From an uncultured Mycoplasmatota bacterium (GTDB lineage: Bacteria; Bacillota_I; Bacilli_A; RF39; UBA660), in assembly GCA_945948625.1 (NCBI GenBank), contig CAMFBT010000001.1:1-41569 (forward strand): 41,569 nucleotides of DNA, read 5' to 3'. The stretch's first letter is position 1, and the number at the start of each line of letters is the position of its first letter. Made by a program: the position numbers and the translations under genes. Positions 12,785 through 35,174 of the stretch are shown here, piece after piece. The notes under the pieces are model-generated. The model made no database searches. It saw only the letters and a list, made by a program, of their open reading frames with translations, and had not been told where the DNA came from.

Positions 12785-12922
12785 ATGACAAGTAAGAAAT
12801 ATAAAATGTACTATGATTATCATAAAAGAACAAGTGGTGGTTTCCTAGATGCAATATTTTTATCTGGCATAATGTTAAGTGGCCTAATATTAATACTTCT
12901 TTCGTTAGTGGGAGGTAAATAA
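12785..12922 (+). CDS. 45-aa single-pass membrane peptide, translationally coupled to the AAA+ gene
   Basis: Not in the ORF track because it is under 60 aa. RBS GGGGAG lies 7 nt before the ATG. The product is MTSKKYKMYYDYHKRTSGGFLDAIFLSGIMLSGLILILLSLVGGK. Its stop overlaps the next start (TAATG). Confidence 0.4.
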   Translation: MTSKKYKMYYDYHKRTSGGFLDAIFLSGIMLSGLILILLSLVGGK

Positions 12923-13891: not shown

Positions 13892-14389
13892 ATGAAAAAA
13901 ATAGTAGTAAATGTTTTAATCATCTTGTATTTTCTAGTAGCAGTAGTAGTTACTTATGCATTATTATCTTATAATAAATACAACATAGTAGAAACAAAAG
14001 ATAAATATATCTTAACAATAAAAGAAGATAATCCAGATTTTAAAAAAAGTGATTTATTAGTAGTAAAAAAATCACAAGATTTAAAGGAAAAAGATTATGT
14101 ATTTTATTATGATACATATGCAACTAAAGTAACAGTAAAATATGCTAAAATAAAACAAATTAAAACAATCAATGAGGAAGAACAAGAGATTAACCTAGAA
14201 AATGATTTAGTATTATCAAGTGAGAATATTTTAGGAAGTAAAAAAAATACAATATCATATGCCATTATAGGCACAGTATTTAATGTATTAACATCAAAAT
14301 GGGGATACCTATTTATCATAATATTTCCAATGCTAATTGCTTTTATATATGAATTATATGCCATAGCAAAAGAAGTAAAGAGAAAATAA
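13892..14389 (+). CDS. Catalytically dead SipW-like signal peptidase paralogue (module A)
   Basis: Collinear with the SipW ORFs: an N-terminal TM helix, a PDFKKSDLLVVKK box, an ILG box and a C-terminal TM helix (WGYLFIIIFPMLIAFIYELYAI). The Ser box reads TIKEDNPD and the His box reads VKYAKIK. Confidence 0.65.
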   Translation: MKKIVVNVLIILYFLVAVVVTYALLSYNKYNIVETKDKYILTIKEDNPDFKKSDLLVVKKSQDLKEKDYVFYYDTYATKVTVKYAKIKQIKTINEEEQEINLENDLVLSSENILGSKKNTISYAIIGTVFNVLTSKWGYLFIIIFPMLIAFIYELYAIAKEVKRK

Positions 14390-14397
14390 TAAAACCT

Positions 14398-15390
14398 ATG
14401 AAAAAAAATATTACAAGGATAAAAAATTATCTATCAGAGTTAGAATTAAAAAAAGGATTATTAAAAATAAAGGCAAAACTTGATAAATATGGTAAAAAAG
14501 CTTATATCCTATTGGGAACATTATTAATATTGGTACTTACAACAATAACATATGGAAAATATATCTATAATGATATTAGAGATTTCTATTTAGCCAGTAA
14601 GAGTTTCTATTTTAATAGTGATAAACTAACAGTAAATAGAGCTATCTATCAAGTAGATAATTGGTCAGCAGTAGATCCATATACCATAACAATAAATCTA
14701 AACAATAGTAAAAATAATTTAATCCATGCAAGTAGTGATATAACTTATGAAATAAGTTATGTTTGTTCTAATAATGTTTTATGCAGTATAAATAGTGAAG
14801 GAGGAACACTTTATACTGAAGAAGGATCAAGCTATTTTAATGCTGTAATAACTCCAAATTCAACATTCGAAGTAGGAGATGAAGCTTTTATAGAAATAAC
14901 AGTAAAAAGTACATATCCTTATAAAAAAACACTAAGTGGAAGATTTATTTTAAAAGTAGGAAAAAGCGGATTAACATATACTATAGATGATAAAATAGGA
15001 AGACCATATTTGAATTTTAATATAACAAATACAATTGATTACTATCTAGTAAAAGAAGCATTTGATAGTTATCAAGTTGGGGATAGAATAGATAGATTAA
15101 CATATATAGAATTACCAGAAGAAAATAAAAGAAAATGTCTTTCTGCAGAAGTGACATTAACATTTGATCCAAATAAAGTTATATTAGATACTACAAATAC
15201 TATATTTTTAAAGAAAGAAAGTTATACAACAACAACTATTAATAATTATGATTATATAAATAGTATAACTTTTAGAATGGATTCAGAATCAAGTGAAGTA
15301 GTAAAGTTTTATAAAAGTGATACAAACATAGACTATACATATCCAATAACAAATGACATTTCAATAATTAATTTCAGTTATTCAGAATAG
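14398..15390 (+). CDS. Secreted TasA-like family protein, class-2 signal motif (TTITYGKYIY), long form
   Basis: Basic n-region, a hydrophobic helix, then TYGKY. SFYFNSDKLTVNRAIYQVDNWSAVDPYTITINLNN aligns with AFYILNADYYEKNIHLDNIVPSETPYVYTFKVSN of ORF 34462. The RBS is weak. Confidence 0.55.
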   Translation: MKKNITRIKNYLSELELKKGLLKIKAKLDKYGKKAYILLGTLLILVLTTITYGKYIYNDIRDFYLASKSFYFNSDKLTVNRAIYQVDNWSAVDPYTITINLNNSKNNLIHASSDITYEISYVCSNNVLCSINSEGGTLYTEEGSSYFNAVITPNSTFEVGDEAFIEITVKSTYPYKKTLSGRFILKVGKSGLTYTIDDKIGRPYLNFNITNTIDYYLVKEAFDSYQVGDRIDRLTYIELPEENKRKCLSAEVTLTFDPNKVILDTTNTIFLKKESYTTTTINNYDYINSITFRMDSESSEVVKFYKSDTNIDYTYPITNDISIINFSYSE

Positions 15391-15401: not shown

Positions 15402-16376
15402 ATGGCTAGTAATATAGTAAAAGAATATATTGATTTTTCAAAGAAAAATATAACAAAATACCTAAAAATAATTTTAGAACAAGATTATTCTAAAGAGATA
15501 ATAGAACCATTATTAGATACATATATAAATGTAAGATATTACAATAATTATGATATAAAATATAAAGTCTTTGAATCAAATATAAACTATTATATGAAGC
15601 AAAAAGCCATCAAAATAAATGAAGAAAAAGAAGAAGAATATATTTCTAAAGTAAAAAAAATCTTTTATTTATTTAAATATATATTGTATTTTGATAATGT
15701 TTTAGAATATGAATCACTAAAAAAAATAATATCAGAAATAGATGAATATCGAAATGAAGTACTAGGTTTAACTAGTGAAAATTTTATAGAAGAATTAAAT
15801 GACTTAGTAAAAGAAAATGAAAAAAGAAAAGAAACATTTATTGAAGAATTAAGTAGTGACCACTTTAATCTAGAAATAAAAAATACTAATAATAAAAATG
15901 TATTTAAAGTTAAATTAAATAATAATATAAAATTTAATAAAATATATAGTGATTACTCAATAAATAAAGTTTATAATGAAGGATTAGTAGATGAGCAAAA
16001 ACATTTTATATTATATTATTTAATAACTAGAGAAATATTAAAAAACATAATAAGAGGTGATTTCACTAAAGAGTATATAATTAGTTTTCCAAATAATATT
16101 TTTACAAAACAACAAAAAATAAATAGATTAATAGCCATAATAGATGATGAATCAATAAAAAATAATATTGTCATAGAATTTACCTATACAGATTATCTTT
16201 CTAATAAAGAAATAATAAATAGTTGGATAAAAAAAGGATTTCAAATAGCAATAAAAATAGATGAAAAATATAAATATGATAATAATAGTAAAATATGGCT
16301 AGATATATTTAAATATGTAATAGTAGATAAAGAAAAAAAGAATTTTTTTGATGAAGATCAATTAATAATTGAATAG
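15402..16376 (+). CDS. Cytoplasmic protein of unknown function
   Basis: RBS AGGTGGTGA. There is no TM helix or signal peptide. The composition is Lys/Glu/Asn/Ile-rich, and no secure motif was found. Confidence 0.6.
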   Translation: MASNIVKEYIDFSKKNITKYLKIILEQDYSKEIIEPLLDTYINVRYYNNYDIKYKVFESNINYYMKQKAIKINEEKEEEYISKVKKIFYLFKYILYFDNVLEYESLKKIISEIDEYRNEVLGLTSENFIEELNDLVKENEKRKETFIEELSSDHFNLEIKNTNNKNVFKVKLNNNIKFNKIYSDYSINKVYNEGLVDEQKHFILYYLITREILKNIIRGDFTKEYIISFPNNIFTKQQKINRLIAIIDDESIKNNIVIEFTYTDYLSNKEIINSWIKKGFQIAIKIDEKYKYDNNSKIWLDIFKYVIVDKEKKNFFDEDQLIIE

Positions 16377-16391: not shown

Positions 16392-17915
16392 ATGGATACA
16401 TTTTTTAGATTTTTATATGAATTTCTTGAACAATTTTTTACCTCATTTATACTAATGTTTAAAGGAATAATAAATGGAGTAATAAATATGTTCAATATAA
16501 AAAAATATATAGCAATTATTAATTTCTATAAAGAAGACTTTACCATTCCAGAATGGGTATTAGTAGTACTTGCTATATTAATAGTTTTAACCATAATAGG
16601 AGGCATAGGATTTATAATATATTATCTAATCAGAAAATATTTAAGATTTAGAAAAACAATTGTAGAAGAAGAATCACTTCTTGAAGAAGTTGCCTCTTTA
16701 AATAATCAAGTATCAGATTTAATGGAAGAAAAAGAAAGTATATTAGCAATGAAAGTATCACAACTAGGATTGAAACCAGGTGAATCCCCTGAAGTAGAAG
16801 AAAATGATAAATCGGGTGAAGATGCAGATACTACCAAGAGTAGATTCCCTAAATTAACAGCAGTAGATATTGAATATTCAAAATATAAAGTAGTAAATTA
16901 TGCAAATAATTTTACTCTAGAGGAATTAGTAGAAACATTTCGTAATTTTGCAGCATCAAAACTAAAATTATATTATAAATCAGAAATGATAAGATTATTC
17001 ATTTCAGCACTAGCTTCAACTAAATTAGTAATATTACAAGGTATATCTGGTACCGGTAAAACCTCCTTAGCATATGCTTGGGGAAAATTCTTAAAGCACG
17101 ACTCATGTGTTGCTTCTGTTCAACCATCATGGAGGGATAGGACAGAATTATTTGGATACTTTAATGAATTCACTAAAAAGTTTAATGAGACAGAAGTGTT
17201 AAAAGAACTTTATGTAGCAGGTTATACAGATGACATATATACAGTAATTCTAGATGAAATGAATATTTCAAGAGTAGAGTATTATTTTGCTGAAATGTTA
17301 TCAATACTAGAAATGCCAAACAAAGATGAGTGGATAGTAGAATTAGTATCTAGTTCTTGGCCTGATGATCCTAAAAATATTGAAGATGGAAAATTAAAAA
17401 TACCTCCTAATGTATGGTATATCGGAACAATTAATAACGACGATTCAACATTTATGGTAACAGATAAAGTATATGATAGAGCAATGCCTTTAGACATAAA
17501 TGATAAAGGGCAAGTATTTGAACCAATAGATACAGATGCACAAGATATAAATTATACATATTTAGATAAATTATTTAGTGAAGCAATGAATAATAATCCA
17601 ATATCAGAAGATACACTAAATAAAATAAATGAGATGGATGATTATGTAATAAAGCATTTTAGAATAGCTTTTGGTAATCGTATTGTAGCACATATGAAGA
17701 AATTCGTTCCAGTTTATGTAGCTTGTGGAGGAAACGAAGTAGATGGTGTAGATTATTTTATAGCAAGAAAAATATTAAGAAAATTTGAGCAATTAAATAT
17801 ATCCTATATTAGAGATGAAATAGATGGTTATATTGAATTTCTAGATAAAACATTTGGAAAAGGAAAAATGAAAGAATGTGAAGAATATTTACTTAGATTA
17901 AAGAAATTAACATAG
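16392..17915 (+). CDS. Membrane-anchored McrB-like AAA+ GTPase
   Basis: Two N-terminal hydrophobic helices and a coiled coil. Walker A is LQGISGTGKTS, and the Walker B/McrB signature is ILDEMNISRVEYYFAEMLSILE. The NxxD box is NVWYIGTINNDDSTFMVTDKVYDRAMPLDI. Confidence 0.8.
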   Translation: MDTFFRFLYEFLEQFFTSFILMFKGIINGVINMFNIKKYIAIINFYKEDFTIPEWVLVVLAILIVLTIIGGIGFIIYYLIRKYLRFRKTIVEEESLLEEVASLNNQVSDLMEEKESILAMKVSQLGLKPGESPEVEENDKSGEDADTTKSRFPKLTAVDIEYSKYKVVNYANNFTLEELVETFRNFAASKLKLYYKSEMIRLFISALASTKLVILQGISGTGKTSLAYAWGKFLKHDSCVASVQPSWRDRTELFGYFNEFTKKFNETEVLKELYVAGYTDDIYTVILDEMNISRVEYYFAEMLSILEMPNKDEWIVELVSSSWPDDPKNIEDGKLKIPPNVWYIGTINNDDSTFMVTDKVYDRAMPLDINDKGQVFEPIDTDAQDINYTYLDKLFSEAMNNNPISEDTLNKINEMDDYVIKHFRIAFGNRIVAHMKKFVPVYVACGGNEVDGVDYFIARKILRKFEQLNISYIRDEIDGYIEFLDKTFGKGKMKECEEYLLRLKKLT

Positions 17916-17925
17916 GAGGTAAAAA

Positions 17926-19041
17926 ATGAATGAACTTGAAATAGTAAACTTATATGAAAAAACAAATCAAGATAGAAATAGCAGATTTTCAGAAAATATA
18001 AATTCAAGTCTTCGAGTAAAAACAGCCTATGATCGAGTAAATACAAGTTTTGAATGGCTTGAGATAATGGAAGAAACTATAAGATATTTAGATAATATAT
18101 TAAGAAACCCCAATAGATTTATAATAAATGAGGAAGATATTGTTAAAATAGAATTAGCCCGTCGAGTAACCGTAGAAAGCATAAAACATTTATCAAAAAA
18201 TACTAATTTAATTCAAGATTATAATAAAGAAACAGGAGATGTAAGACCAAGTAAAATATTAAATATAAATAAAGAAGAAAGTTTTGATACATATGAAAAT
18301 AGATTTATTTATAGTTTAATAAAAAATATGAAGTTTTTTATAGAAAGAAAAAAGAAAAATCTAATTACTGAGTCATATAGCAAAGATGATAAAACAATGG
18401 AATATACTGCTAAAAGTAGTATAGACAATGAAAATATAGATATATCAATGACTATAAATTCTAAGAAAGATGATAAAAAGAATATTAAAGATGAATCAGG
18501 TTTAACAATTCCCGAAAGAATAGAGAGGTTAGAAACCCAAATATCCGACTTAACATCATCTTCAGTATATCAAATAATTGATAAAAAACATATATCATTA
18601 GTAACATCTCCAATAAAAAAAACCAATGTAATATTAAAGAATGTAAACTTTCAATATGCTGTAAAACTATGGAATTATATGCAAAATCATATGGAAGATG
18701 ATACAAAAAAAGAAAAGAAAAATAATGATTATTATGATGATGGCAATATAAAAAAGTTAATAGATGAATCATTTCTATTAGACTATTTAGTTTTAGATAC
18801 AATAAATAGAGAAGAAGAAAAATATGATAAAAAAGCCTTATCAGAAAAAATTGTTGGTAACATGATAGAAAAAATGATAACAATTGACTCGACTATTGAT
18901 GAAAAAAAATTAAAAGAAATAATAGATAAACAATATAGTATAATAAAATATAAAACAGTAGTAAATGAAAAACAAATAGAAGAAGTCTATAAAAAATATA
19001 TGGATAAATATTTAGAAAAAATAAAAATGTTAGAAATATAG
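17926..19041 (+). CDS. McrC-like partner protein; nuclease motif not evident
   Basis: RBS AGGAGG, 10 nt after the McrB-like stop. FDTYENRFIYSLIKNM resembles the McrC/DUF2357 EDT-x-ANR-[IF]-I box. The C-terminal half is Lys/Glu-rich with no clear hydrophobic-strand D-x-K. Confidence 0.4.
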   Translation: MNELEIVNLYEKTNQDRNSRFSENINSSLRVKTAYDRVNTSFEWLEIMEETIRYLDNILRNPNRFIINEEDIVKIELARRVTVESIKHLSKNTNLIQDYNKETGDVRPSKILNINKEESFDTYENRFIYSLIKNMKFFIERKKKNLITESYSKDDKTMEYTAKSSIDNENIDISMTINSKKDDKKNIKDESGLTIPERIERLETQISDLTSSSVYQIIDKKHISLVTSPIKKTNVILKNVNFQYAVKLWNYMQNHMEDDTKKEKKNNDYYDDGNIKKLIDESFLLDYLVLDTINREEEKYDKKALSEKIVGNMIEKMITIDSTIDEKKLKEIIDKQYSIIKYKTVVNEKQIEEVYKKYMDKYLEKIKMLEI

Positions 19042-19052
19042 TGGTGATATGT

Positions 19053-19616
19053 ATGATAGAAAGAATAAAAAATAATAAAGCATTAAAAATAATATTAATG
19101 ATTTTAAAAGCAATAGTATCTTTATTTATAGTAATAGTAATTAGTATAATCTTTATTCAGAGAATATCTAATAATAAATTATCATTAGGTGGATATAGTA
19201 TATATACAATTATAACAGAAAGTATGGCACCAAAATATAAAGTATATGATATGGTAATAGCAAAAGAAACAGATTCTAATCAAATAAAAGTAAATGATGA
19301 TGTTGTATATTTAGGAAATAAAGATGATTTTGCAGATAAAATAGTAACACATAGAGTAATAAAAAAAGAAGTACTAGAAGGTAAAAATTATTTTCATACT
19401 AAAGGTATAGCTAACGATATAGAAGATCCCTTAGTTGGAGAAGAACAAATATTAGGAAAAGTAGTATATAAAAGTAGAGTATTAAGTATAATCAGTAAAA
19501 TAGTAAATAATCCTTATGGCTTTTATTTTGTAGTATTTGTTCCTTTTGCCATATTACTAGTAATGGAATTAATAGATATAATAGAAGAGAGAAAAGAAAA
19601 AAATCTAAGTAGGTGA
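19053..19616 (+). CDS. sipW: Signal peptidase I, SipW/archaeal-ER type (S26B), module A
   Basis: Start moved to the ATG at 19053, which follows GGTGA by 5 nt. The Ser box is IITESMAPKY and the His box is IVTHRVIK. It has both N-terminal and C-terminal TM helices. Confidence 0.8.
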   Translation: MIERIKNNKALKIILMILKAIVSLFIVIVISIIFIQRISNNKLSLGGYSIYTIITESMAPKYKVYDMVIAKETDSNQIKVNDDVVYLGNKDDFADKIVTHRVIKKEVLEGKNYFHTKGIANDIEDPLVGEEQILGKVVYKSRVLSIISKIVNNPYGFYFVVFVPFAILLVMELIDIIEERKEKNLSR

Positions 19617-20218
19617 TACTATTGAATGACCAAAAAAAGAAAAGAAAAAAAAGAAGGATTAGATTAAGAACAATATTTTTTCTTGCTATAACACTAGCCT
19701 CAAATAGTTTTGCTTGGTTTATATATTCGACAAAAGTATCAAATAATATTACTGCTAAAGTAAAAAGTTGGCATGTAAACTTTGAAATAGGAAATGGTGA
19801 AGAAATAGAAGAATACTTAGAAATAAATATAGATTCATTATATCCAGGAATGGAAACCTATCAAAAAACATTGAAAGCATCAAATAATGGTGAATCAGAT
19901 GCTTACATAAATTATGAAGTAGAAAAAGCAATTGTATTAGGAGAAAATCTTCTGACTTTAAATTTAACAGATAATCAAATAATAGATAAAATAAGAAATG
20001 ATTATCCATTTACTATTGACTTTAATGTTTCAAATAATATTATATCAAAAGCTGGTGGAGAAACTGAAATTACAATAAGTGTGAGTTGGCCATATGAAAA
20101 TGGTAATGATACAGAAGATACATACTGGGGAAACAAGTCATATGATTATCATCAAGAACATAGTGATCTGCCAAGTATTAGTTTAATAATTAAGATAACC
20201 GCAGTCCAAGTAGAATAG
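19613..20218 (+). CDS. Secreted TasA/camelysin-like protein, class-1 signal motif (SNSFAWFIYS), short form
   Basis: The KKKRKKRRIRLR n-region is followed by a hydrophobic helix and FAWF. IDSLYPGMETYQKTLKASNNGESDAYINYEV resembles the TasA/camelysin PG-x-x-x...N-x-G strand pair. The start is uncertain: GTG at 19613 or TTG at 19622. Confidence 0.6.
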   Translation: MILLNDQKKKRKKRRIRLRTIFFLAITLASNSFAWFIYSTKVSNNITAKVKSWHVNFEIGNGEEIEEYLEINIDSLYPGMETYQKTLKASNNGESDAYINYEVEKAIVLGENLLTLNLTDNQIIDKIRNDYPFTIDFNVSNNIISKAGGETEITISVSWPYENGNDTEDTYWGNKSYDYHQEHSDLPSISLIIKITAVQVE

Positions 20219-20325: not shown

Positions 20326-20910
20326 TTATTTTAATTGAGTAAAAGACAAATTAACATCCATTTTAGCAGTATTATTATTCTTAGTAGCTTCTGTATCAGC
20401 AGTATTATCCATAGTAGCATTTTCTCCATCATCCCATAAAACATAAACCCTAATATTAATAGGATTAGTATTATTAACTTGTAATACTTGATTAGAAATA
20501 GATTGATTATCTCTATCTAAATAAATAAATTCCCCATTATTAATACTATATTTAGTAGCTATTAAATCAGTAACAGAACTATTATTATTAACCGAAAAAT
20601 TAATACTATATTTAAAAGAAACATCAGCTTCTGTAGCATCTATAACAAGATCAAAATATCCTTCACTAGTAGGAGCAATAATACCATTTGCTATATGTTC
20701 ATTTCCTTCAAATACTGGAGTAATAATAGCATTAGTAGTACTCCCTTCTCTAATATCCTTATTATTAACAAGAATTCTCCATCTAGCTACATTCATTGTA
20801 GCATTTTCACTAGTAGCAGTTAAATACTTAGCATAAGATTCCTGTATAAAAAAAATACATAGTATAAAAGACAAGAAAGCCATAATAAAAATAAAATGTT
20901 TCTTCTCCAT
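20326..20910 (-). CDS. Secreted TasA-like family protein, class-2 signal motif (QESYAKYL); the only minus-strand gene in the window
   Basis: RBS AGGTGAT. It is a paralogue of ORF 33273: VARWRILVNNKDIREG aligns with VAKWNVLINGTDIKSG, IAPTSEGYFDLVIDATEADVSFKYSINF with IAPGTKGYFDIVINPTDTETSILYSITF, and NIRVYVLWDDGEN with TIRVYIKWNNIEEN. Confidence 0.6.
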   Translation of the reverse strand: MEKKHFIFIMAFLSFILCIFFIQESYAKYLTATSENATMNVARWRILVNNKDIREGSTTNAIITPVFEGNEHIANGIIAPTSEGYFDLVIDATEADVSFKYSINFSVNNNSSVTDLIATKYSINNGEFIYLDRDNQSISNQVLQVNNTNPINIRVYVLWDDGENATMDNTADTEATKNNNTAKMDVNLSFTQLK

Positions 20911-21239: not shown

Positions 21240-21953
21240 ATGGCAAAAGATGTAGTGGTAACAGCAGAAAAAGTCTATGGAAGAAAAAAGAAATATAGTA
21301 GTATAAAACTAATATTATCTATAGTTCTTATAATATTAACATTAACATTTATCATTTTAGGAGTAATATATAAAGGAGGAAAGTTTACAATAACTCTAGA
21401 CAATAGATTATCATCAGAAAGTGGAATAGTAATATATGAAGATTCAGAGATAAAAGAAACAAAAAGAAAATTGTCTGCTAGAGACATAGAATTCATGGAT
21501 AATATATCAATAAATTGGATTCCTCAAAATATAGATACCGAAAGTGATGGTTCTCATAACGGAGAAAACTATATAGCATATACATTCTATATAGAAAACG
21601 AAGGAGAAAAAACAGTAAATTATTGGTATACAATAATAATTGATGATGTCATAAAAAAAGTTGATGAAGCTGCTAGAGTTATGATATATTTAAATGGTAA
21701 TAAAAAAGTATATGCTAAAATAAATTCATTTACTAGTGAACCAGAAAAAGATACAATTCCATTTTATAGTGAAAAAGAAGCAGTATTAGAACAAAGAAAA
21801 GATTTCAAACCAAATGATATAGATAAGTTTACAATAGTAATATGGTTAGAAGGTGATGACCCAGATTGTATAGACAACATATTAGGTGGAGAAATAAAAA
21901 TGCATATGGAAATAAGAGAAGAACATAAGGAAGAGAGCGTAAAGAATGATTAA
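21240..21953 (+). CDS. Membrane-anchored member of the class-1 subunit family (no YAWF motif)
   Basis: RBS AAGGGAG and one TM helix (IKLILSIVLIILTLTFIILGVI). The C-terminal FTIVIWLEGDDPDCIDNILGGEIKMHMEI matches the YMW[IV]EGQDVDCENN box of ORFs 21946 and 35175. Confidence 0.55.
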   Translation: MAKDVVVTAEKVYGRKKKYSSIKLILSIVLIILTLTFIILGVIYKGGKFTITLDNRLSSESGIVIYEDSEIKETKRKLSARDIEFMDNISINWIPQNIDTESDGSHNGENYIAYTFYIENEGEKTVNYWYTIIIDDVIKKVDEAARVMIYLNGNKKVYAKINSFTSEPEKDTIPFYSEKEAVLEQRKDFKPNDIDKFTIVIWLEGDDPDCIDNILGGEIKMHMEIREEHKEESVKND

Positions 21954-22950
21954 TAATAAAAAGAAAAACAAAAAAAGAAAATATAGATTATTTTATTTAT
22001 TATTGCTATTATTAGTAACAACATTATCTTTATCAGTATCATCATATGCTTGGTTTACCACTAATAGATTAGTAAGAGTAGATTTATTAAATGTAAATGT
22101 CAGGGCACAAGGAGGAATAGAAATATCCGTAGATGGAACAAATTGGAAATCATCAGTATCAGTAGAAGATATAATAAATGCAAAAGATACCTATCAGACA
22201 AATACCAATCAAATACCAACAACCATAGAAGCAGTTTCAACGGCAGGTAAAATAAATAATGGTAAAATAGAAATATATCATGGTAATGCAGTAAATAATG
22301 CAGTAGGAGATTATATTCTTGAAACAACAAGAAGTGTTGAAATACAATCAGCAGAGGGTAGTCAAGGAAAGTTTATAACATTTGATTTATTTTTAAAGAC
22401 AAATAAAAATACAGCATTATATTTAACACCAGAATCAAATGCAACCTATAGTGGTGATAAATCAGTTGGAATAGAAAATGCTGTTCGGTTTGCCTTTATA
22501 GAAGAAGGAACAACATTTGTAGGATCTTCATTAAATACCATCCAGTCAATGACCACAAATGATCAGAGTAAAGTTCATATATGGGAACCAAATTATGATA
22601 CACATACAGAGTATGGAATAGAAAATGCCAAAGATATATATAACATAAATATAACAAATCCATCAGAATCATTAAATTATGATGGTGTGATAAGCGAAAT
22701 ATCAAAAACAGCTGGAGTAACAACAAGTACTGCTAATGAGGCAACATACCCAGAATATTTTGCGAGAGTAAAAGTAGATTATTACACAAAGAATAACTTT
22801 GACAACAATATTGAAATATTTACTATTAATAGCGGAATAACAAAAATAAAAGTATATATGTGGATTGAAGGACAAGATGTAGATTGTGAGAATAATGCTG
22901 CTGTTGGTAATATTGCTCTAAATCTAAACTTTAGTACAAACCCATCTTAA
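21946..22950 (+). CDS. Secreted TasA-like large subunit, class-1 signal motif (SSYAWFTT), module A
   Basis: KKKNKKRKYR n-region, a hydrophobic helix, then SYAWFT. It is a full-length paralogue of ORF 35175 (IWEPNYDTHTEYG aligns with IWEPNYDIHTAAG, and YMWIEGQDVDCENNAAVGNI with YMWVEGQDVDCENNASGGNI). Confidence 0.65.
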   Translation: MINNKKKNKKRKYRLFYLLLLLLVTTLSLSVSSYAWFTTNRLVRVDLLNVNVRAQGGIEISVDGTNWKSSVSVEDIINAKDTYQTNTNQIPTTIEAVSTAGKINNGKIEIYHGNAVNNAVGDYILETTRSVEIQSAEGSQGKFITFDLFLKTNKNTALYLTPESNATYSGDKSVGIENAVRFAFIEEGTTFVGSSLNTIQSMTTNDQSKVHIWEPNYDTHTEYGIENAKDIYNINITNPSESLNYDGVISEISKTAGVTTSTANEATYPEYFARVKVDYYTKNNFDNNIEIFTINSGITKIKVYMWIEGQDVDCENNAAVGNIALNLNFSTNPS

Positions 22951-22995: not shown

Positions 22996-23024
22996 TAATA
23001 TGATATAGATGGTAGGTGGTAGAA

Positions 23025-26000
23025 GTGCAGAAATTAAAAAGAAAAATAAAAGCATTAAAAAATAATACAAAGTTTAAAGTTCGTCTTCTAGTAGGAACAT
23101 CTTCTTTACTACTTTTGATAATAGGAATAACCACATACTTTACTACCTACAGTGATTTAATATTAGAATTCAGTGAAGATCCAGATTATATTGAAAGTTC
23201 TATAAAGAATAATAAAGTAATAGTAAATGATTTAGAGAATGATTATAATTACTATCAAGGACAAAACTATCTAGACAATGATGGAACTCTACCTACAACT
23301 GATAACAAAAATATTTATAATGATAGCACACTAGTTCAAGCCAAGATAACTTACTATAGTGATGATGATAATAATCATAAAGGGTATGTATCTTCTAGTG
23401 AAAGACAGGATACATACATCTATTTCAAAACTTTTTATGTGAATAATAATGGCACTGATGATACTACTGATGACTATGTACTTATTGAATTAATCGATAA
23501 TCCATTTACTGATAGGCCTACTGATAAAGCCTTTAATGGATGGTTTACTGATTACAATGGAGCTACACTAAGTTTTAATAAAGATTATTATGAAAGATAT
23601 GCAAAAGTGCCGGTAACTTATACTGATAATAAACCTAATAAGATAGAAATAACTTTTAGAGCTAGCTGGGTAGGAGCCAAAATAACTACAATAACAAGTT
23701 CTAATAGTTGGAATAGTACGATTGAAAGTTTAAATACTCCTGAAATGCACAAGTTAGAGACTATAATTAATATTTATGAAGATGTCGACATGACAGGATA
23801 TTATCACCAAGTAAGTGTAAGATTTTTTGATAGTTGTACAGGCTACTATAATAATAGAGGTCAAAGACAAAACAACTGTACCTGCTATTCTTTTGGTGGT
23901 TGTACTTACTATGACTTAATCAATGGTGAAAACTTTAATGAAAATGCAACATATTATGAATTACAAAATAATAATATGCAGTTAGTGGATAATAGTACTA
24001 TCAATAGACCACTTATTGAAACAATTGAAGACACAAGTTATGAAAATGGTATTATGTCATCATTTTATCGTAAAATTTTAGTACCTAGAGGAAGTAGTAT
24101 TATTGGCTATTATGATAGCACTGGAAATATTATGACTAGTGGTAGTTGTACGACAGATGGTGGTTGCACTTATTATGAATTAATTAATTATTATAAAAGC
24201 AATAGTACTCCCGAAATATATGATGAAAATGAAGAGTATTATTATTTGACGACTAGGGATACTAATATTATTGTCATGGGCTCTAATATAGAGGGAACTT
24301 GGTCAACTACAGAGGATATTCCTTTTACTGTAACAGCTTTAAATAATGGTACACAAAATAATGTAACATGGAATGCTAATTCCGCTATTAACTGTTATAG
24401 TGATGTTCGAATAGAGAATATTACTTTATATTATGATAGTGTTATAACAGAAATATATGATCCACCATCTAATACAATGGCATCAGGTGTTTTGTATGGG
24501 CGATATAATAATGTAAAATTAGGTAGAGGTCTAACTCAAAATGGCAGTTATCCAACACTTAGAGCAGTAATAGGAGGAAGTAACTCATCTATTGGTAGTA
24601 ATAATTCACCGGCTAAATATAAACTAGTTATAGAAAGTGGTATTTATAATTCTATATCACTAACTAATGGTGCTACCCGGTATGGTGGTTCCACTATATA
24701 TGTTAAAAACAAGGGTGTTTATGGTAATGACTATGATCGTGTAATAAAAGATAATGATAGTCTAGATGTATACTATTGTGCTTCGGGTAGTTGGAGTGGT
24801 ACCGTATATGCGAGTACTAATTCTGCTACTTCTAGCGATATAGCTTTAGATTTAGTTGTCAAAAATGGTAGCTTTGGTAGCAGTAAATATGATCTATCTA
24901 CAGGAATATATGTCGGAGGTAGATATGCCGGTACTCACAATGCCGCTCGAAGAGCTAAAATTGAAGGTGGTTATATCTACAATTTAATTGGAGGACCTCT
25001 TACTAGTAGTAGGAGGAGTAGTGTCAACGATACCTATATTAATATGACAGGCGGGGAAGTAGATATTATAATTGGTGGTGCAGGAACGACCGCTACTTAC
25101 GGAAACCGAATCATATCTGTAACTGGTGGTACAGTTAATTATAGTGTCTTTGGAGGTTCCAATGGTGCAAAAGGTAATGAAGGAGATGGTACTCTAAATG
25201 GAACGCCTTATATCTATATTGGTGGAACTGCTACAATTGGTAATGATACTAATATAAGTAATAATAATAAATTATTTGGGGCAGAATCGGGAAGTGTTTT
25301 TGGAATTGGAAATGGAAAAGAAAATTCTTCTACTATTGGTTCAGCAGATAATTCAATCATCATAATAGATGGTAATTCTAATATTAAAAGAAATATTTAT
25401 GGTGGTGGAAATTATGGTGCTACAGGAGTAAGTAGCAGTTTAAGTAGTACTTATTCAACTATAATAATTAATGATGGCTTCATTGATGGTGATGTCTATG
25501 GTGGCGGTAATAACAATGGAAGTGGTTCTGAGAGTAAAACATCAACAGTTAGCATTACCATGAATGGTGGTAATGTTGTTGGATCAATTTATGGTGGTAG
25601 TAATGAACTTGGTACAATATATGGCTCTACCAATGTAAACATTTTTGGTGGTGAAGTATCAAATAATGTTTATGGAGGAGGACGAGGTGGTTATATTAGT
25701 GATAGTGCTATAGGAACCTTTGTAGTCAGCGATGTCAACATTGTTATAGGTGATTCGAATAGCACTTATACACCAATAATTGATGGAAGTGTCTATGGTG
25801 GTAGTGCTTTTGGTTCTGTAAATGGTAGTGAAAATACAAACACTGTCAGTTCTAGCAAAACAAATGTCACCATAAATAAAGGTATAATAAATAATGTCTT
25901 TGGTGGTGGTCAAGGAAATAATACATATACACCTTATGTACTAGGAAATATTGAAGTAACAGTAAATAATGGAACAATTACTAATGTGTATGGAGGAAAT

Positions 26001-29000
26001 GACCTAAAAGGAAAACCAAATGGAAATATAACAGTAACAATAAATAATGGCACAATTGAAAATACTTATGGTGGAGGAAACGAAACATCCGCTAATGAAA
26101 CAAATGTGTATTTAAATGGAGGCACATCAACTAAATTATTTGGAGGTTCAAATAAAAATGGAGATGTTGTAATTAGTAATGTCACAGCAACAGGTGGAAC
26201 TTGTGAAACTTTATATGGAGGAAATAATGCTGGTGGCACCACCGGAACAACAAATGTTTTAATAAATGGTGGAACTATAAATACAGTATATGGAGGTGGT
26301 GATAAAACCTCAGTAACTACAAGTACAAATGTAGTAGTAAATAATAAAGTAGATACTATTTTTGGTGGCTCAAACCTATCAGGAAACATACCTCTATCAA
26401 ATATTGAAGTAAATAATGCAATAATAAATGCCGTGTATGGTGGTAATAATCAAGGTGGAAAAGTAGAAACAACTAATGTAAACATAAATGGTAATTTTAT
26501 CGATTCTGTATATGGTGGAGGATTAAAAGCTGAAACTACAACTACAAATCTAAATTTAAATTATGGATTAATAAAGAATGTTTATGGTGGAGGAAACGAA
26601 GCTGGAGCTAATGAAACAAATGTTAATTTAGGAGGAGCGGACATAATTAATCTGTTTGGAGGCTCAAATAAAAGCGGAGATGTACAAAATACATATATAA
26701 AAAATATAGAAGATTTCGTAGTTAGCGATTTATCAGCAGAATTTACTATTAGTCAGTCCAATATAAATCAAATTGGAGCTACAGATATTTCTGGAAGTGA
26801 AACTATTACCGTAGAGATAAATAATAATACAGGAGTAACTTTATCAGAATGGGATTTATATATATTAACAAGTGAAAGTATATTTGATTCAAACTGGAGT
26901 TCATCAGAAGTAGAATTTGATAGTATTAATAATATATATCATATAGATGAAACAAATCAGTGGTACGGTACAAATAGTTTAAATAATGGAACACCATTTA
27001 CTTTTGAATTTAATATTCACTCATATGATACATATGAAAACTTTAAAATATATAGTTATATGCTAATAGGATATGATACTAATGGTAATCAATATACAAG
27101 CAAGTTAACCGTAGATAAAATGTATGGTGGAAATAATTTAGGTGGAATTACTAATAATGCTCAAATAGATTTAACCGCAGGTAGTATTAATGTCTTATTT
27201 GGAGGAGGAAATAAAGCAAGTGTAACAAATTCTAGCACAAATATTGATAATGTAGTTATAAATGAAGAAATCTATGGAGGAGGAAATGAAGCTGATGTTT
27301 CATCAGTAATTTTAAATATAAACAATTCTGAAGTAGGAAATATAACAAAAAAAGGAGTAGTTTATGGCGGAGGAAATGCTGCTAAGGTAACAAATAGTTT
27401 AGAACTAAATATAAATTCTTCAGAAATAAATGGTAATATTTATGGTGGAGGAAATAAAGGAAAAGTAGAAACAAAAGCTAAAACTACTATTACTACAAGT
27501 CATATAACAGATAATATCTATGGCGGAGGAAATGAAGCTGAAGTTCAAACCACAGAAGTAAATATAAAACAAAATACTAACATAGATAAGAATATTTATG
27601 GTGGAGGAAATCTAGGTACTGTATTAGGAGAAGCAAATACTGTAATAGAAAACTCAAATATAACAAATAGTGTTTTTGGTGGAGGAAATGCTGCTGAAGT
27701 ACAAGGGAATGCTAATGTAACCATTCATAATAGTATAATTGATGAGGCTATTTATGGTGGAGGAAATGGCGAATATTCAATTGTACCAGGAGATGAAATA
27801 GGAGATCAAAATCCAGCAAAAGTATTAGGAAATACGAACTTATTAGTAGATGAAAATACCAAAGTCAAAACCATTTACGGTGGAGGAAATCTAGGAAAAG
27901 TAAATAAAGATACTAAAATAGAAATAAAAAATATAACAGTTACTGATTCAATTTATGGTGGAGGAAATGCTGCCATTGTAGGAGAAAATACTAATTTATA
28001 TGTATCAAATGTAAATGTAACAAATAGTATATATGCTGGAGGAAATGGTTTATTAGCAGTAGTATATGGAAATACAAACCTAGATATCGATAATAATACA
28101 GTAGTAGGAAAACATGTTTTTGGTGGAGGAAATGCTGCTGCCACTGGTACTGAAGAAAACAATAATTCTAAAGGAATAGTAAACATAGTAGGAGCAACAA
28201 TAAATGGCAATGTTTATGGAGGAGCTAATACCTCACAACTATATGGTGATACTACAGTAAATATAGGAAACTTAACAAGTAGTAACCAAAACCTAATAAA
28301 ATCTGATATTGTAATAGAAGGAACGGTATTCGGTGGAGGAGAAGCAAATGCTAGTGGTAGTGAAGAATATGATTATTCCTTCATAAGTGTAACAGTAGGA
28401 ATAAAAATTAATATTAACGGTTCTGGACATGATACATTTACAATAAAAGGATCAATATTTGGAAGTGGTAATGCTTCTTCAACTACAGGATATAGTTATA
28501 TAGATATCAAAAACTATGGAACAAAAGAAGATATAAAGAGAAATATATCAATTCAGAGGGCAAATATTGTAACATTAGATAATTCATATATTGAATTAAA
28601 AGGTGCAACAGATAGAACAAATGAGTATTCAACAGTATTGTTCTCTTTGAGTAGAATAGATGAATTAAAACTAATAAATAATACATCATTATATCTTCAA
28701 AATGGAGGTAACTTAGTCAAAAAATTATCTAGTTTAACTATAGAAAATAATATTGAAACAAAAGCACAAGTAACTATAGATACTGAAACAAATACTTTTA
28801 CTAGAAATACTAATAATAGAATATATATGTTAGAAGGAAAAAATCTAAATATAGCTACAAATGAAAATATAACATCATTTGGTGAAGTATCTGGAATGAC
28901 TTTCTTTGGTATGTATTTAAATAGTATAAATGGTGATATAGTAACAGCATTATATAATGATTATGATCCATCAGCATCTGTATCATCAGGAGATATTTAT

Positions 29001-31076
29001 TACTTTACAAAAGGTAGTTATGTACTTGGAATGCATAAAACAAATCATGACATAACTGAAGATGGGTTCTATACCAATTATGGAAATGAAGAAGGAAATG
29101 GCATAATAATAAACTATATTGAACCAACTCCAGATAATTCAGATTTCTATATGTGGTCAGTAGGAGAAAAAGTAGATTCATATGAATTAACACTTACAGC
29201 ATCAAAATATTCAACACTTGGTACATATGAATTATCACTATTAAATCATGCAACTGCTAACACAAAATTCTCTATATTAGGTTTTAACTATTCAGCATTA
29301 GATCAAAATATAGTATTAACAGATTATAGAAATATACCTAGAATAGCAGCAACCGAAGAAGATGCAAATACCATTTTTGGATTAAATATGAAATCAGGAC
29401 AAAATGGTTGGATAACAAAAGGAAGTACTAATTTTATAACTGGAGAAAATACAAATGTACAAGGAACAATAGATTATCAAAGAGAAAACTTAGAAGGGGC
29501 TCCTAGTTTAGTATTTTACTTCTACCATTCTAAAAATTTAACTGAAACCCAAAATCTTGGTAGTGTAACAATTTCATTAGTGGCTATAACACCAATAGAT
29601 GATTTAAATAATGAAGTAAAAAGAATAAATATAAATGTAAACTTAAATACAGCATTATATAATACCAATGATTATGAAGGAACTATAACACCAGGAAAAA
29701 AATATGAAATGTTTGCAACTAGTCCTGTAGATATAACAACAAAGAGTAGTTTCAGTGCTTACTATTCATTATATATGGAAAGCGAAACAACACCATATAA
29801 AACTGGATACCATCGTAGTTTAGTATCAACATATTTATTACCAGTAAATACAGAATTAACGATGATTGATTTCCATGTTGAAGATAAACCTGTATACTAT
29901 TATTATACAGTAACAGAAGATGACTATACTTCTTTAGAAGAAGAATATAATCTATATGGAGAAGTATCATATCCATTATCTAAATTTATAAAAATGGGTA
30001 GTACAAGTCCTAATAATAATTATGATGATGCAACCGCTAATACAATATATTATAAAGATGAAAAAGCAATTGAAGAATTTATCTTTATGGTTGACTTTAA
30101 AGATACTAATATTGAGACAGACATCCTAGATAAATCACTATTAATTGAATTAAGAAATAATGATAATCAAACACTAATAAGTGTATTAGGAATAGAACAG
30201 TCCACTATGAAATACAATCTATATAATAATAGAGAAGGAATAATCGAATTATCAGGAAACTTATCTCAAAATACTATTTATCGAGGTAAGAGTACTAACT
30301 TAACATTAGATACAAACTTTATTCAAGATAAAATATCTACAAATACAATCTTTGATACTAACTTTGATGAGCAAAAATTAGGTATAAAGATAACAATTCT
30401 AGATAGTAGAGGAACTCCTCTTACAAGTTCAAGTTTAATGGGAATAAATTATACCTTCAATGGTAATACATATTATCCAAGATATGATGGTACGGTAAGA
30501 ATAAATATTACTGAAAAAGTTGCAAATGCAAGATCAAAGATAATAATTAATACTGAAAATAGTAATCTTTCAAGTGGTGAATATACCCTTCTAATAGAAT
30601 CATTTGGTTCAGCAGATGGAATATATTATGGATTAAATTCATCAGATCAGTTAGAAATAACATTTAATATAGTTGATAATATTTATGGTTTAAAAGTAAC
30701 CACGGATGATAAAATGCTATTTATAAATAAAGATACCGGTTTCACATTAAATGGTAATAATAGTTATGTATATAAGGTAGAATATACATCTGGATTATCT
30801 AATCCAAATACTAGATTAAAATTATTAAGAAGAGATTATACTTCAATATATACAAATGTTTATAACGAAGTAGATTTAAAAGATTATGTAACAAATACAT
30901 TAGAAATAACTTCTAATGACAAAGAATACTATCTGTCTAAAACACCAGTAAATGAAACAACATATTTCTTATACTTTAAAGAAAATTTACCAAATGGGAC
31001 CTATAAATTAGTAGTATCACTATATGATGATAATAACTATATAGGAGAAACATACCAATACATAATAATAAAATAG
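23025..31076 (+). CDS. Giant (about 2,680 aa) secreted beta-solenoid protein with a SipW-type-like N-terminal signal; putative fibre-borne adhesin
   Basis: One uninterrupted ORF. I prefer the GTG at 23025, 5 nt after AGGTGG, over the track start at 23016. The N-terminus is a KLKRKIKALK n-region, then LLVGTSSLLLLIIGI, then TTYFTTYSD. It contains dozens of [VI][YF]GG[GSN]N repeats and has no C-terminal LPXTG or TM anchor. Confidence 0.85.
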   Translation: MQKLKRKIKALKNNTKFKVRLLVGTSSLLLLIIGITTYFTTYSDLILEFSEDPDYIESSIKNNKVIVNDLENDYNYYQGQNYLDNDGTLPTTDNKNIYNDSTLVQAKITYYSDDDNNHKGYVSSSERQDTYIYFKTFYVNNNGTDDTTDDYVLIELIDNPFTDRPTDKAFNGWFTDYNGATLSFNKDYYERYAKVPVTYTDNKPNKIEITFRASWVGAKITTITSSNSWNSTIESLNTPEMHKLETIINIYEDVDMTGYYHQVSVRFFDSCTGYYNNRGQRQNNCTCYSFGGCTYYDLINGENFNENATYYELQNNNMQLVDNSTINRPLIETIEDTSYENGIMSSFYRKILVPRGSSIIGYYDSTGNIMTSGSCTTDGGCTYYELINYYKSNSTPEIYDENEEYYYLTTRDTNIIVMGSNIEGTWSTTEDIPFTVTALNNGTQNNVTWNANSAINCYSDVRIENITLYYDSVITEIYDPPSNTMASGVLYGRYNNVKLGRGLTQNGSYPTLRAVIGGSNSSIGSNNSPAKYKLVIESGIYNSISLTNGATRYGGSTIYVKNKGVYGNDYDRVIKDNDSLDVYYCASGSWSGTVYASTNSATSSDIALDLVVKNGSFGSSKYDLSTGIYVGGRYAGTHNAARRAKIEGGYIYNLIGGPLTSSRRSSVNDTYINMTGGEVDIIIGGAGTTATYGNRIISVTGGTVNYSVFGGSNGAKGNEGDGTLNGTPYIYIGGTATIGNDTNISNNNKLFGAESGSVFGIGNGKENSSTIGSADNSIIIIDGNSNIKRNIYGGGNYGATGVSSSLSSTYSTIIINDGFIDGDVYGGGNNNGSGSESKTSTVSITMNGGNVVGSIYGGSNELGTIYGSTNVNIFGGEVSNNVYGGGRGGYISDSAIGTFVVSDVNIVIGDSNSTYTPIIDGSVYGGSAFGSVNGSENTNTVSSSKTNVTINKGIINNVFGGGQGNNTYTPYVLGNIEVTVNNGTITNVYGGNDLKGKPNGNITVTINNGTIENTYGGGNETSANETNVYLNGGTSTKLFGGSNKNGDVVISNVTATGGTCETLYGGNNAGGTTGTTNVLINGGTINTVYGGGDKTSVTTSTNVVVNNKVDTIFGGSNLSGNIPLSNIEVNNAIINAVYGGNNQGGKVETTNVNINGNFIDSVYGGGLKAETTTTNLNLNYGLIKNVYGGGNEAGANETNVNLGGADIINLFGGSNKSGDVQNTYIKNIEDFVVSDLSAEFTISQSNINQIGATDISGSETITVEINNNTGVTLSEWDLYILTSESIFDSNWSSSEVEFDSINNIYHIDETNQWYGTNSLNNGTPFTFEFNIHSYDTYENFKIYSYMLIGYDTNGNQYTSKLTVDKMYGGNNLGGITNNAQIDLTAGSINVLFGGGNKASVTNSSTNIDNVVINEEIYGGGNEADVSSVILNINNSEVGNITKKGVVYGGGNAAKVTNSLELNINSSEINGNIYGGGNKGKVETKAKTTITTSHITDNIYGGGNEAEVQTTEVNIKQNTNIDKNIYGGGNLGTVLGEANTVIENSNITNSVFGGGNAAEVQGNANVTIHNSIIDEAIYGGGNGEYSIVPGDEIGDQNPAKVLGNTNLLVDENTKVKTIYGGGNLGKVNKDTKIEIKNITVTDSIYGGGNAAIVGENTNLYVSNVNVTNSIYAGGNGLLAVVYGNTNLDIDNNTVVGKHVFGGGNAAATGTEENNNSKGIVNIVGATINGNVYGGANTSQLYGDTTVNIGNLTSSNQNLIKSDIVIEGTVFGGGEANASGSEEYDYSFISVTVGIKININGSGHDTFTIKGSIFGSGNASSTTGYSYIDIKNYGTKEDIKRNISIQRANIVTLDNSYIELKGATDRTNEYSTVLFSLSRIDELKLINNTSLYLQNGGNLVKKLSSLTIENNIETKAQVTIDTETNTFTRNTNNRIYMLEGKNLNIATNENITSFGEVSGMTFFGMYLNSINGDIVTALYNDYDPSASVSSGDIYYFTKGSYVLGMHKTNHDITEDGFYTNYGNEEGNGIIINYIEPTPDNSDFYMWSVGEKVDSYELTLTASKYSTLGTYELSLLNHATANTKFSILGFNYSALDQNIVLTDYRNIPRIAATEEDANTIFGLNMKSGQNGWITKGSTNFITGENTNVQGTIDYQRENLEGAPSLVFYFYHSKNLTETQNLGSVTISLVAITPIDDLNNEVKRININVNLNTALYNTNDYEGTITPGKKYEMFATSPVDITTKSSFSAYYSLYMESETTPYKTGYHRSLVSTYLLPVNTELTMIDFHVEDKPVYYYYTVTEDDYTSLEEEYNLYGEVSYPLSKFIKMGSTSPNNNYDDATANTIYYKDEKAIEEFIFMVDFKDTNIETDILDKSLLIELRNNDNQTLISVLGIEQSTMKYNLYNNREGIIELSGNLSQNTIYRGKSTNLTLDTNFIQDKISTNTIFDTNFDEQKLGIKITILDSRGTPLTSSSLMGINYTFNGNTYYPRYDGTVRINITEKVANARSKIIINTENSNLSSGEYTLLIESFGSADGIYYGLNSSDQLEITFNIVDNIYGLKVTTDDKMLFINKDTGFTLNGNNSYVYKVEYTSGLSNPNTRLKLLRRDYTSIYTNVYNEVDLKDYVTNTLEITSNDKEYYLSKTPVNETTYFLYFKENLPNGTYKLVVSLYDDNNYIGETYQYIIIK
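24960..26697 (+). repeat. Coding repeat array 1 of the giant gene (about 24-26-aa GG-containing solenoid units); approximate bounds
   Basis: Successive units such as YGGGNETSANETNVYLNGGTSTKL, FGGSNKNGDVVISNVTATGGTCETL, YGGNNAGGTTGTTNVLINGGTINTV and YGGGDKTSVTTSTNVVVNNKVDTI. Confidence 0.7.
27120..28500 (+). repeat. Coding repeat array 2 of the giant gene (26-aa IYGGGN-x-A-x-V units); approximate bounds
   Basis: Five consecutive units of exactly 78 nt start at 27360, 27438, 27516, 27594 and 27672. There are at least six exact copies of TATGGTGGAGGAAA plus one-mismatch variants. Confidence 0.8.
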
Positions 31077-32749: not shown

Positions 32750-33283
32750 ATGAAAAAAGTTTTAAAAATAATAGGAATAATACTAATAGTCATATATGCA
32801 GTAGTGGCTATAACACTTACAATATTTCTACTAAATTACAATAAATATAATATAACAGAAATAAATGATAAGTCATTAATAATTGTAAGAGATGAAGAAT
32901 TAAAACCAGATTTTCAAAAGGGAGATTTAGTAATAGTAAAGAAAAATCAAAATAAAGATATAAAAGTAGGAGATAAAATATTCTTTTATGACAATTATAA
33001 AGATATAGTTTCTGTTAATTTAGGAACAGTATTAGAAAAAGAATCAATAACAAAAGAGGAAACTACATATATTATGGATGGAGATTATGCTGTATCTAGT
33101 GAATATGTAATAGGAACTGCTAAAACAAGTAAATCTTATAGCAATTTAGGAACAATATTAGGAGTACTAGAATCAAGATTCGGTTTCCTATTTATGATAA
33201 TATTTCCTATACTTGTATTATTTATATATGAGATATATGCAGTAATAAGAGAATTAAAGAGTTCAAAAGAAGATGAAGAATAA
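32750..33283 (+). CDS. Catalytically dead SipW-like signal peptidase paralogue (module B)
   Basis: Paralogue of ORF 13892. IVRDEELKPDFQKGDLVIVKK aligns with IVSGSMEPTLNIKDLIVVKN of the active enzyme, so the nucleophile Ser is lost. The His box reads VNLGTVL. The C-terminal TM helix RFGFLFMIIFPILVLFIYEIYAV is conserved. Confidence 0.65.
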   Translation: MKKVLKIIGIILIVIYAVVAITLTIFLLNYNKYNITEINDKSLIIVRDEELKPDFQKGDLVIVKKNQNKDIKVGDKIFFYDNYKDIVSVNLGTVLEKESITKEETTYIMDGDYAVSSEYVIGTAKTSKSYSNLGTILGVLESRFGFLFMIIFPILVLFIYEIYAVIRELKSSKEDEE

Positions 33284-33872: not shown

Positions 33873-33891
33873 TAATAAAGCGGTGATGTAA

Positions 33892-34452: not shown

Positions 34453-34461
34453 GTGAGTAAT

Positions 34462-35049: not shown

Positions 35050-35085
35050 AATAAAAAACTTATGCAAAAAATGTCGAATTTTTAC

Positions 35086-35114
35086 TTGCAAATAAAAAAA
35101 AAGTGTGTTATACT
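35086..35114 (+). promoter_or_regulatory. Strong sigma-A type promoter of the module-B large subunit gene
   Basis: TTGCAA (35086-35091), a 17-nt spacer containing A9 (35094-35102), then tgtTATACT (35106-35114). It is followed by a roughly 60-nt leader and the RBS AAAGGAG. Confidence 0.65.
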
Positions 35115-35174
35115 AAAATAGTAATAGTAGGAGAGAAAGTAATTCTCAAATTCTTAATAAAAAGGAGTGTTAAA

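Follow-up and report, generated by a model that had tools for sequence, protein, structure and literature searches.

The McrBC-like systems closest to the one considered here are described in the survey of about 34,000 McrBC systems by Bell, Makarova, Wolf and Koonin (eLife 2024, PMC11090510). In the text of that survey, a major branch of McrB GTPases is defined by an NxD motif, after which E or a second D usually comes, and DUF2357 is presented as the N-terminal domain of McrC, which binds and activates the McrB ring. CoCoNuTs that lack the McrC nuclease are described there as always adjoining HEPN or other nucleases. Another clade, CoCoPALM, is named in one paragraph, without gene lists and with the analysis deferred to a later publication; its GTPase is fused with an FtsB-homologous transmembrane (TM) plus coiled-coil domain, genes of the signal-peptidase family are associated with it, and coiled coils are usual in the McrB and McrC homologues alike. 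Here we describe a gene pair in a 41,569-nucleotide stretch of DNA from an uncultured Mycoplasmatota bacterium (contig CAMFBT010000001.1 of assembly GCA_945948625.1; the whole stretch is referred to as the window). The pair consists of the open reading frames (ORFs) 16392-17915, encoding a McrB-like NTPase, and 17926-19041, encoding a DUF2357 protein, and it is likely to serve a CoCoPALM-type system as its cytoplasmic NTPase module, a McrBC derivative without DNA recognition and nuclease that would act on secretion or assembly.

As for CoCoPALM, the window pair has an NxD McrB-like GTPase in which a TM plus coiled-coil-like segment replaces the DNA-binding domain, and an adjacent DUF2357 McrC homologue, and genes of the signal-peptidase family are associated with it. 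We infer the equivalence from this architecture, not from shared accessions. Both the CoCoPALM architecture and the idea of a role in pilus assembly are already published, and the window pair adds a well-documented member plus further detail.

The comparison with Escherichia coli McrBC (PDB codes 6hz4 and 6ut6) reveals a shared AAA+ core with Walker A, Walker B and Nx(x)D motifs, and an activator gene immediately downstream. The differences are considerable, however: the signature is NxD in the window and NxxD in McrB, a membrane anchor takes the place of the N-terminal methylcytosine-reading domain, the partner is devoid of a PD-(D/E)xK nuclease, and the genes around the pair are secretion and fibre genes instead of restriction-modification genes. 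Because of the absence of both a DNA-binding domain and a nuclease, the pair is not a canonical McrBC system. With the CoCoNuTs (CnuB/CnuC) it shares the NxD branch of McrB and probably the presence of coiled coils, and CoCoNuT McrC homologues are also often without an active nuclease. CoCoNuTs are soluble, and RNA-binding domains and nucleases (HEPN or others) always accompany them, whereas the window pair has TM anchors, signal peptidases, and no nuclease found in its neighbours; since no nuclease is adjacent, it is not a CoCoNuT. Relatives of the ATPase have at least 771 cluster representatives, and the soluble ones with 700-870 residues are probably CoCoNuT members. The Bacillus subtilis tapA-sipW-tasA operon resembles the locus in that a gene for a SipW-type peptidase lies beside its secreted substrates, but that operon is not known to encode an NTPase, whereas the window holds several SipW copies, some of them dead, and a giant protein. 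The two genes of the pair, and the parts of the NTPase, are:

16392..17915, plus strand: McrB-family (NxD-branch) AAA+ GTPase-like protein of 507 residues, in which the AAA+ core comes after an N-terminal hydrophobic segment, a TM helix and a heptad/acidic linker
16551..16631, plus strand: strong TM helix, residues 54-80, followed by RKYLRFRK
16644..16961, plus strand: linker, residues 85-190, with a heptad-like helix of about 40 residues and then an acidic low-complexity stretch
16965..17735, plus strand: AAA+ core, aligned by hhalign with E. coli McrB
17926..19041, plus strand: DUF2357 (McrC N-terminal domain) protein of 371 residues, without a nuclease domain (PF09823 match)

The sequence places the product of ORF 16392 among the McrB-family AAA+ NTPases, in the NxD branch, and its Walker A, Walker B and N-x-D motifs are intact. 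A search of PDB sequences with this protein matched E. coli McrB chains alone (6hz4, 6ut6, 7vsr; E 1e-3), and the match strengthened to E 4.7e-5 with a family profile built from 23 diverse relatives. Alignment of the profile with E. coli K-12 McrB (sequence from NC_000913.3) by hhalign gave a probability of 96.7% and E 3.7e-10 over 228 columns, spanning query residues 192-448 and McrB residues 176-415. Pfam AAA_5, the family holding McrB, matches 22 of the 23 relatives; the window ATPase by itself has no AAA_5 match at E <= 1. The motifs in the window protein are G217-x-S-G-T-G-K-T (Walker A), L-D288-E-M-N (Walker B) and the signature T-I-N348-N-D350-D-S-T. Among 134 relatives, each representing one 50%-identity cluster, the corresponding patterns G-x-S-G-T-G-K-[ST], L-D-E-M-N and T-[AI]-N-x-D-[DE]-S-T are essentially invariant, with N348 and D350 present in 134/134, and position 351 occupied by D in 98 and E in 32. 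Because the N-x-D-[D/E] signature fits the description by Bell et al., the ATPase is assigned to the NxD branch.

A preliminary description of this DNA, made from the letters alone, had claimed two ORFs at 16392 and 17926, four alignment blocks with McrB, two N-terminal hydrophobic helices, a coiled-coil/acidic linker, and replacement of the DNA-reading N-domain by a membrane anchor. Both ORFs are present, each preceded by a good ribosome-binding site, and all four blocks are recovered in the HMMER alignment with the E. coli McrB chains. The claim of two helices stands for residues 54-80, which form a very hydrophobic helix (Kyte-Doolittle 3.06), while the first segment (about residues 15-34; Kyte-Doolittle 1.46-1.59) is borderline; two strong TM helices are present in more distant homologues. 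The linker was correctly described, with a heptad-like pattern at residues 88-127, an acidic remainder, and an overall content of 22 D/E versus 15 K/R at residues 82-190. The replacement of the DNA-reading domain also holds: the first 190 residues consist of hydrophobic segment, TM helix and linker, and no DNA-binding family is matched in them by Pfam. Because the basic stretch RKYLRFRK comes after the TM helix, the ATPase core should be located in the cytoplasm according to the positive-inside rule.

Three relatives (P0248, P0251 and P0253) with longer N-termini were considered as possible fusions with SipW or dead SipW, and this was rejected, two of them having a signal peptide plus an unrelated extracellular domain. 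In P0251 and P0253 the NTPase core (about 52-53% identity) is preceded by one TM helix, which a Pro/Thr-rich linker connects to an extracellular domain (about 230 residues) behind the signal peptide, a layout that can be likened to that of a transmembrane receptor.

The partner matches Pfam DUF2357 (PF09823) at residues 24-153 with E 2.2e-13 and 50.4 bits (cut-off 23.3). The FDTYENRFIYSLI box, proposed in the preliminary description to be McrC-like, falls within this match, and its residues T122, Y123, E124 and N125 are invariant. Conservation peaks at residues 44-135, which include the T-Y-E-N box, with a second conserved stretch at residues 222-251. Among the 120 homologues listed (54-100% identity), nearly all are 367-383 residues long and have PF09823 as their sole domain. 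A further correspondence, suggested earlier between ENIDISMTINSKK of the partner and METDITIRSSEK of E. coli McrC, fails, as homologues have N, S, K or E in place of D172 (in 'ENIDIS') and no DxK strand follows it. In E. coli McrC the nuclease region reads METD244ITIRSSEKILIVD257AK259, and an equivalent strand was not found in the partner. The lack of the nuclease D-x-K, already noted in the preliminary description, is borne out: a conserved D...(D/E)xK triad was sought among the homologues and not found, the Pfam scan of the partner shows no nuclease family, and in an AlphaFold2 model of moderate confidence (a pLDDT of 69), composed of a helical bundle and long beta-hairpins, the C-terminal half is mainly helical. 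Residues 66-117 are conserved but low in pLDDT in this model, and residues 149-186 make up a hairpin. That the partner is without a nuclease is well supported. On metagenome contigs the partners range from 347 to 875 residues, those of 580-875 residues having coiled-coil inserts, and the longer ones also have no nuclease match in Pfam.

The conservation of the gene order constitutes the second line of evidence. A scan of species-representative genomes gave at least 547 stretches encoding ATPase relatives, the best 80 of which were examined. These show 54-86% identity and originate from gut and rumen metagenome-assembled genomes (MAGs) labelled Bacilli, 'Tenericutes', Erysipelotrichaceae, Clostridia, Acutalibacteraceae and Oscillospiraceae. 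Synteny was counted over 83 loci. The DUF2357 gene comes next after the McrB-like gene in 81 of them, the other two being cut off where the contig stops; SipW-like genes were counted in 66 and secreted-protein families in about 50-57, and in essentially all loci long enough to tell, SipW and secreted-protein genes flank the pair. Loci with homologues at about 55% identity keep the gene order while their outer flanks differ, and the metagenome contigs show the same gene pattern as the 83 loci. Given its architecture, and its retention among SipW and secreted-protein genes while the flanks vary, we regard the pair as a new CoCoPALM member rather than a defence cassette that landed in the locus; of the two possibilities weighed in the preliminary description, co-option and stray cassette, the co-occurrence, which is the test proposed there, favours co-option. 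A role in fibre or secretion biogenesis is suggested, and the pair does not appear to be an anti-phage restriction module.

Eight loci (L009, L017, L021, L027, L036, L043, L052 and L058) place the cluster in MAGs labelled Muribaculaceae, Bacteroidales or Acidaminococcus; these labels probably reflect mislabelled or contaminated bins and not a true cross-phylum occurrence. A sister class of NxD McrB-like NTPases, in L085-L118, has a polytopic N-terminal membrane domain with 3-5 TM helices and a length of about 600 residues, up to 852 (e.g., NTPases L104:7350-9176 and L106:7335-9164, and partners L106:9193-10551 and L086:10215-13586). In this class a SipW-like gene is often found upstream and the DUF2357 protein downstream, followed by an ABC-type ATPase and two large ORFs, and the tail of the DUF2357 partner is zinc-ribbon-like or, in one case, a GNAT acetyltransferase. 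The polytopic class was not found described in the text of Bell et al.

The genes next to the pair tie it to signal peptidases. The partner ORF begins after a gap of 10 bases, and its stop codon overlaps the start of a SipW-type peptidase gene at 19041, one of two catalytically intact SipW-type peptidases in the window (the other is at 33892). Two further SipW paralogues, at 13892-14389 and 32750-33283, have lost the catalytic Ser, the His and the GD-x-N...D segment, but keep the layout of TM segment, beta-domain and TM segment. In Clostridia-type loci the dead SipW paralogue lies immediately upstream of the McrB-like gene. The ORF preceding the ATPase gene in the window, ORF 15402, gives no match in Pfam, NCBIfam or PADLOC scans, nor with its family profile against the PDB. 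Five species genomes have, immediately before the ATPase gene, one ORF of 646-751 residues in which SipW and a homologue of ORF 15402 are fused, on the plus strand in all cases (L050:3-1976, L060:7875-9998, L066:7938-9998, L069:7749-10004 and L071:8057-9997). The N-terminal part of the fusion is an intact SipW (TM segment, G-S-M, T-H-R, TM segment), and the C-terminal part is homologous to residues 33-311 of ORF 15402 with 28-34% identity and E down to 5e-30. Such a fusion is a Rosetta-stone link between the cytoplasmic genes and the peptidase. ORF 15402 was also considered as a hidden nuclease and rejected in this role; its invariant residues are Y, F and K only, and because they are limited to these, an enzymatic function seems unlikely. 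The surrounding cluster has the following composition:

13892..14389, plus strand: SipW paralogue without catalytic Ser and His (dead peptidase)
14398..15390, plus strand: conserved single-pass membrane protein (TM 34-53) with a beta-rich extracytoplasmic domain, in 49 loci
15402..16376, plus strand: ORF 15402, conserved cytoplasmic protein
19041..19616, plus strand: SipW-type (archaeal/ER-type) signal peptidase with Ser (ESM) and His (THR) intact (TIGR02228, E 6e-16)
19613..20218, plus strand: small secreted protein, beta-rich, whose basic N-terminal tail precedes a TM segment, with an S-F-A-W-F motif
20326..20910, minus strand: small secreted protein, the sole minus-strand gene in the cluster, in minus orientation in all 49 loci having it
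21240..22950, plus strand: two more membrane-anchored or secreted proteins (21240-21953 and 21946-22950)
23016..31076, plus strand: giant protein of 2686 residues, unmatched in Pfam, that has a TM/signal segment at its N-terminus and is presumed to be a surface protein
32750..36254, plus strand: second block of the same gene set, made up of the next five entries
32750-33283, plus strand: dead SipW paralogue
33273-33872, plus strand: secreted protein
33892-34452, plus strand: active SipW
34453-35049, plus strand: secreted protein
35103/35172-36254, plus strand: subunit of 360-383 residues with a YAWFT motif

About eight small proteins in this cluster share a layout in which a TM segment separates a basic tail from a beta-rich domain. 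The Lys/Arg-rich cytoplasmic tails are unusually long (19613-20218, 21946-22950, 35103-36254, 33273-33872 and 34453-35049, and 20326-20910 on the minus strand), and several of the proteins carry a conserved S-x-Y-A-W-F-T motif after the TM segment. The two largest secreted proteins share a C-terminal M-W-[IV]-E-G-Q-D-V-D-C-E-N-N-A box; the protein encoded at 21946-22950 has both this box (EGQDVDCENNA) and S-Y-A-W-F-T. We take the T-Y-A-W-F-T motif of the window to resemble the cleavage region of TasA (T-W-A|A-F-N-D). From the link to SipW and from the N-terminal motif, it is plausible that the secreted proteins form TasA-type fibres. An AlphaFold2 model of 35172-36254 is confident (pLDDT 83; predicted TM-score 0.80) and beta-rich, with jelly-rolls as the weak top matches in Foldseek.

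The window has a G+C content of about 25%, and its long ORFs are almost all on the plus strand. Housekeeping genes flank the cluster: on the 3' side a Mur ligase and a DUF1015 gene, and on the 5' side the genes for RNase Y, FtsY, YlxM and a GH3 hydrolase, together with a Clp-like AAA+ fragment. The Clp-like gene (12922-13815, 297 residues, PF00004), located between ylxM and the cluster, was rejected as a part of the system, being missing from 83/83 related loci. The 5' end of the window (31-8303) holds a type IV secretion-like gene set, possibly belonging to an integrated conjugative element, with a VirD4-type coupling protein, a TrbL-like protein, a VirB4/TraG P-loop ATPase, and an M23 peptidase plus lysozyme; a connection to the cluster was rejected, as RNase Y, GH3, FtsY and YlxM intervene, and such genes were not found beside the cluster in the two other loci with annotated neighbours. 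At 31185-32681 lies the gene for a Lys/Glu-rich protein of 498 residues, probably coiled-coil, with no TM segment and no Pfam match, which is next to the giant protein in 20 related loci.

Based on the analogy with McrBC, the NTPase may assemble as a membrane-tethered hexamer, and the stalk of the DUF2357 protein would enter the ring and stimulate GTP hydrolysis. Through the coiled coil and TM segment, ORF 15402, and SipW or dead SipW, the nucleotide cycle could be coupled to the signal-peptidase step, a coupling that would take the place of pulling DNA towards a nuclease. The NTPase would then gate or drive the processing, membrane release and polymerisation of the secreted subunits, for which the long basic cytoplasmic tails are candidate handles. 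A bolder proposal, which we consider possible but short of probable, is that the GTPase ring, the DUF2357 stalk protein, ORF 15402, and both kinds of SipW protein (active and dead) make up the energy-transducing core of an uncharacterised Gram-positive machine for fibre assembly or secretion. Equally tentative is the suggestion that such a machine is a functional counterpart to what the PilB/PilC/prepilin-peptidase core is in type IV pili, and that it is widespread in uncultured Bacilli and Clostridia of gut and rumen.

A number of observations weigh against the assignment to CoCoPALM and against a role in fibre assembly. The Pfam DUF2357 match is, in terms of sequence, the one link of the partner to McrC: comparison with E. 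coli McrC gives an hhalign probability of 0.3% and blastp E >= 0.33, i.e., no similarity, the partner profile finds nothing among PDB sequences, and a Foldseek search of the PDB with the moderate AlphaFold2 model yields no McrC or other significant match (the top matches, TolC and capping protein at a TM-score of about 0.15, are meaningless). Compared with the CoCoPALM description, the partner in the window is a minimal, short form of 371 residues with brief helical heptad stretches, in which the long coiled coil of its relatives is missing, and the FtsB homology of the N-domain is weak, as Pfam DivIC (the family of FtsB and DivIC) matches 1/23 relatives at E 0.012. Neither an experiment nor a follow-up paper on any CoCoPALM was found in a literature search. 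For the TasA-like fibre context claimed in the preliminary description, the SipW part has the TIGR02228 match behind it, but the TasA identity of the secreted proteins is not, by sequence or by fold: these proteins have no match in Pfam or NCBIfam, the profile search against the PDB is negative, and the model of 35172-36254 has no Foldseek match in the PDB at E < 1e-3 and none to TasA, in which the locus differs from tapA-sipW-tasA. The SipW/TasA fibres of B. subtilis are not known to require such an NTPase for assembly, and a motor is not obviously needed. Finally, the McrBC-like superfamily as a whole is ancestrally defensive, and PDC-M26A, a candidate defence protein, is what the ATPase matches best in PADLOC (E 3e-34).

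The alternative that fares best retains the SipW connection but not the motor. The NTPase would here work like MoxR/AAA_5 proteins, as a chaperone or nucleotide-dependent switch, which times SipW or clears stuck precursors and signal-peptide remnants, and the fibres would polymerise spontaneously outside the cell. The AAA_5 clade includes the chaperone-like MoxR proteins, and fibres of the donor-strand kind, TasA among them, are not known to need external energy. Regulation at the level of the peptidase is suggested by the dead SipW paralogues and by the fusions of SipW with ORF 15402 homologues, and the relatives with an extracellular domain, one TM helix and an NTPase resemble a signalling architecture. 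However, no substrate-binding or regulatory domain was identified, and the invariant catalytic motifs fit a motor equally well, so that the data do not separate the two. We rate the switch or chaperone as rather unlikely.

The other alternative is a defence module of McrBC ancestry, acting, for example, by abortive infection or surface-linked immunity, which would sense phage at the envelope and act through an unrecognised effector, its linkage to fibre genes being incidental. Surface fibres are common phage receptors. In addition to the PADLOC match, McrBC is itself a Type IV restriction system, and the sister CoCoNuTs are predicted to be defence systems in the text of Bell et al. (PMC11090510). 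We nevertheless consider a defence module improbable, as the PDC-M26A match is confined to residues 191-315 of the ATPase core (and PDC-M26 was mentioned in no paper found by a literature search), no nuclease or other recognisable effector was found with Pfam or PADLOC in the partner, ORF 15402 or ORF 14398 and none is seen of the neighbouring nucleases that nuclease-less CoCoNuTs always have, no integrase, transposase or restriction-modification genes are seen among the scanned window ORFs of at least 90 residues, and the strict order of SipW and secreted-protein genes over 80 species, with variable flanks, is unlike that of a mobile defence cassette.

With the pair taken as the NTPase module of a CoCoPALM-type system, the detail added here concerns the composition of the system and its spread. 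The gene order is strictly conserved in at least 80 gut Bacillota species, the dead SipW paralogues and the SipW-fusable cytoplasmic protein emerge as further core parts, no nuclease was found across the conserved gene set, and sister NTPase architectures exist in a polytopic-membrane form and an extracellular-domain form. McrBC is the textbook example of a DNA-translocating restriction motor. A lineage without DNA reading and nuclease, bound to the membrane and locked in a secretion/fibre operon, would represent an AAA+ immune motor exapted for envelope biogenesis; if this is true, a restriction-enzyme motor has been repurposed to move protein instead of DNA, and its components can be tested for gut lineages that are abundant and uncultured.

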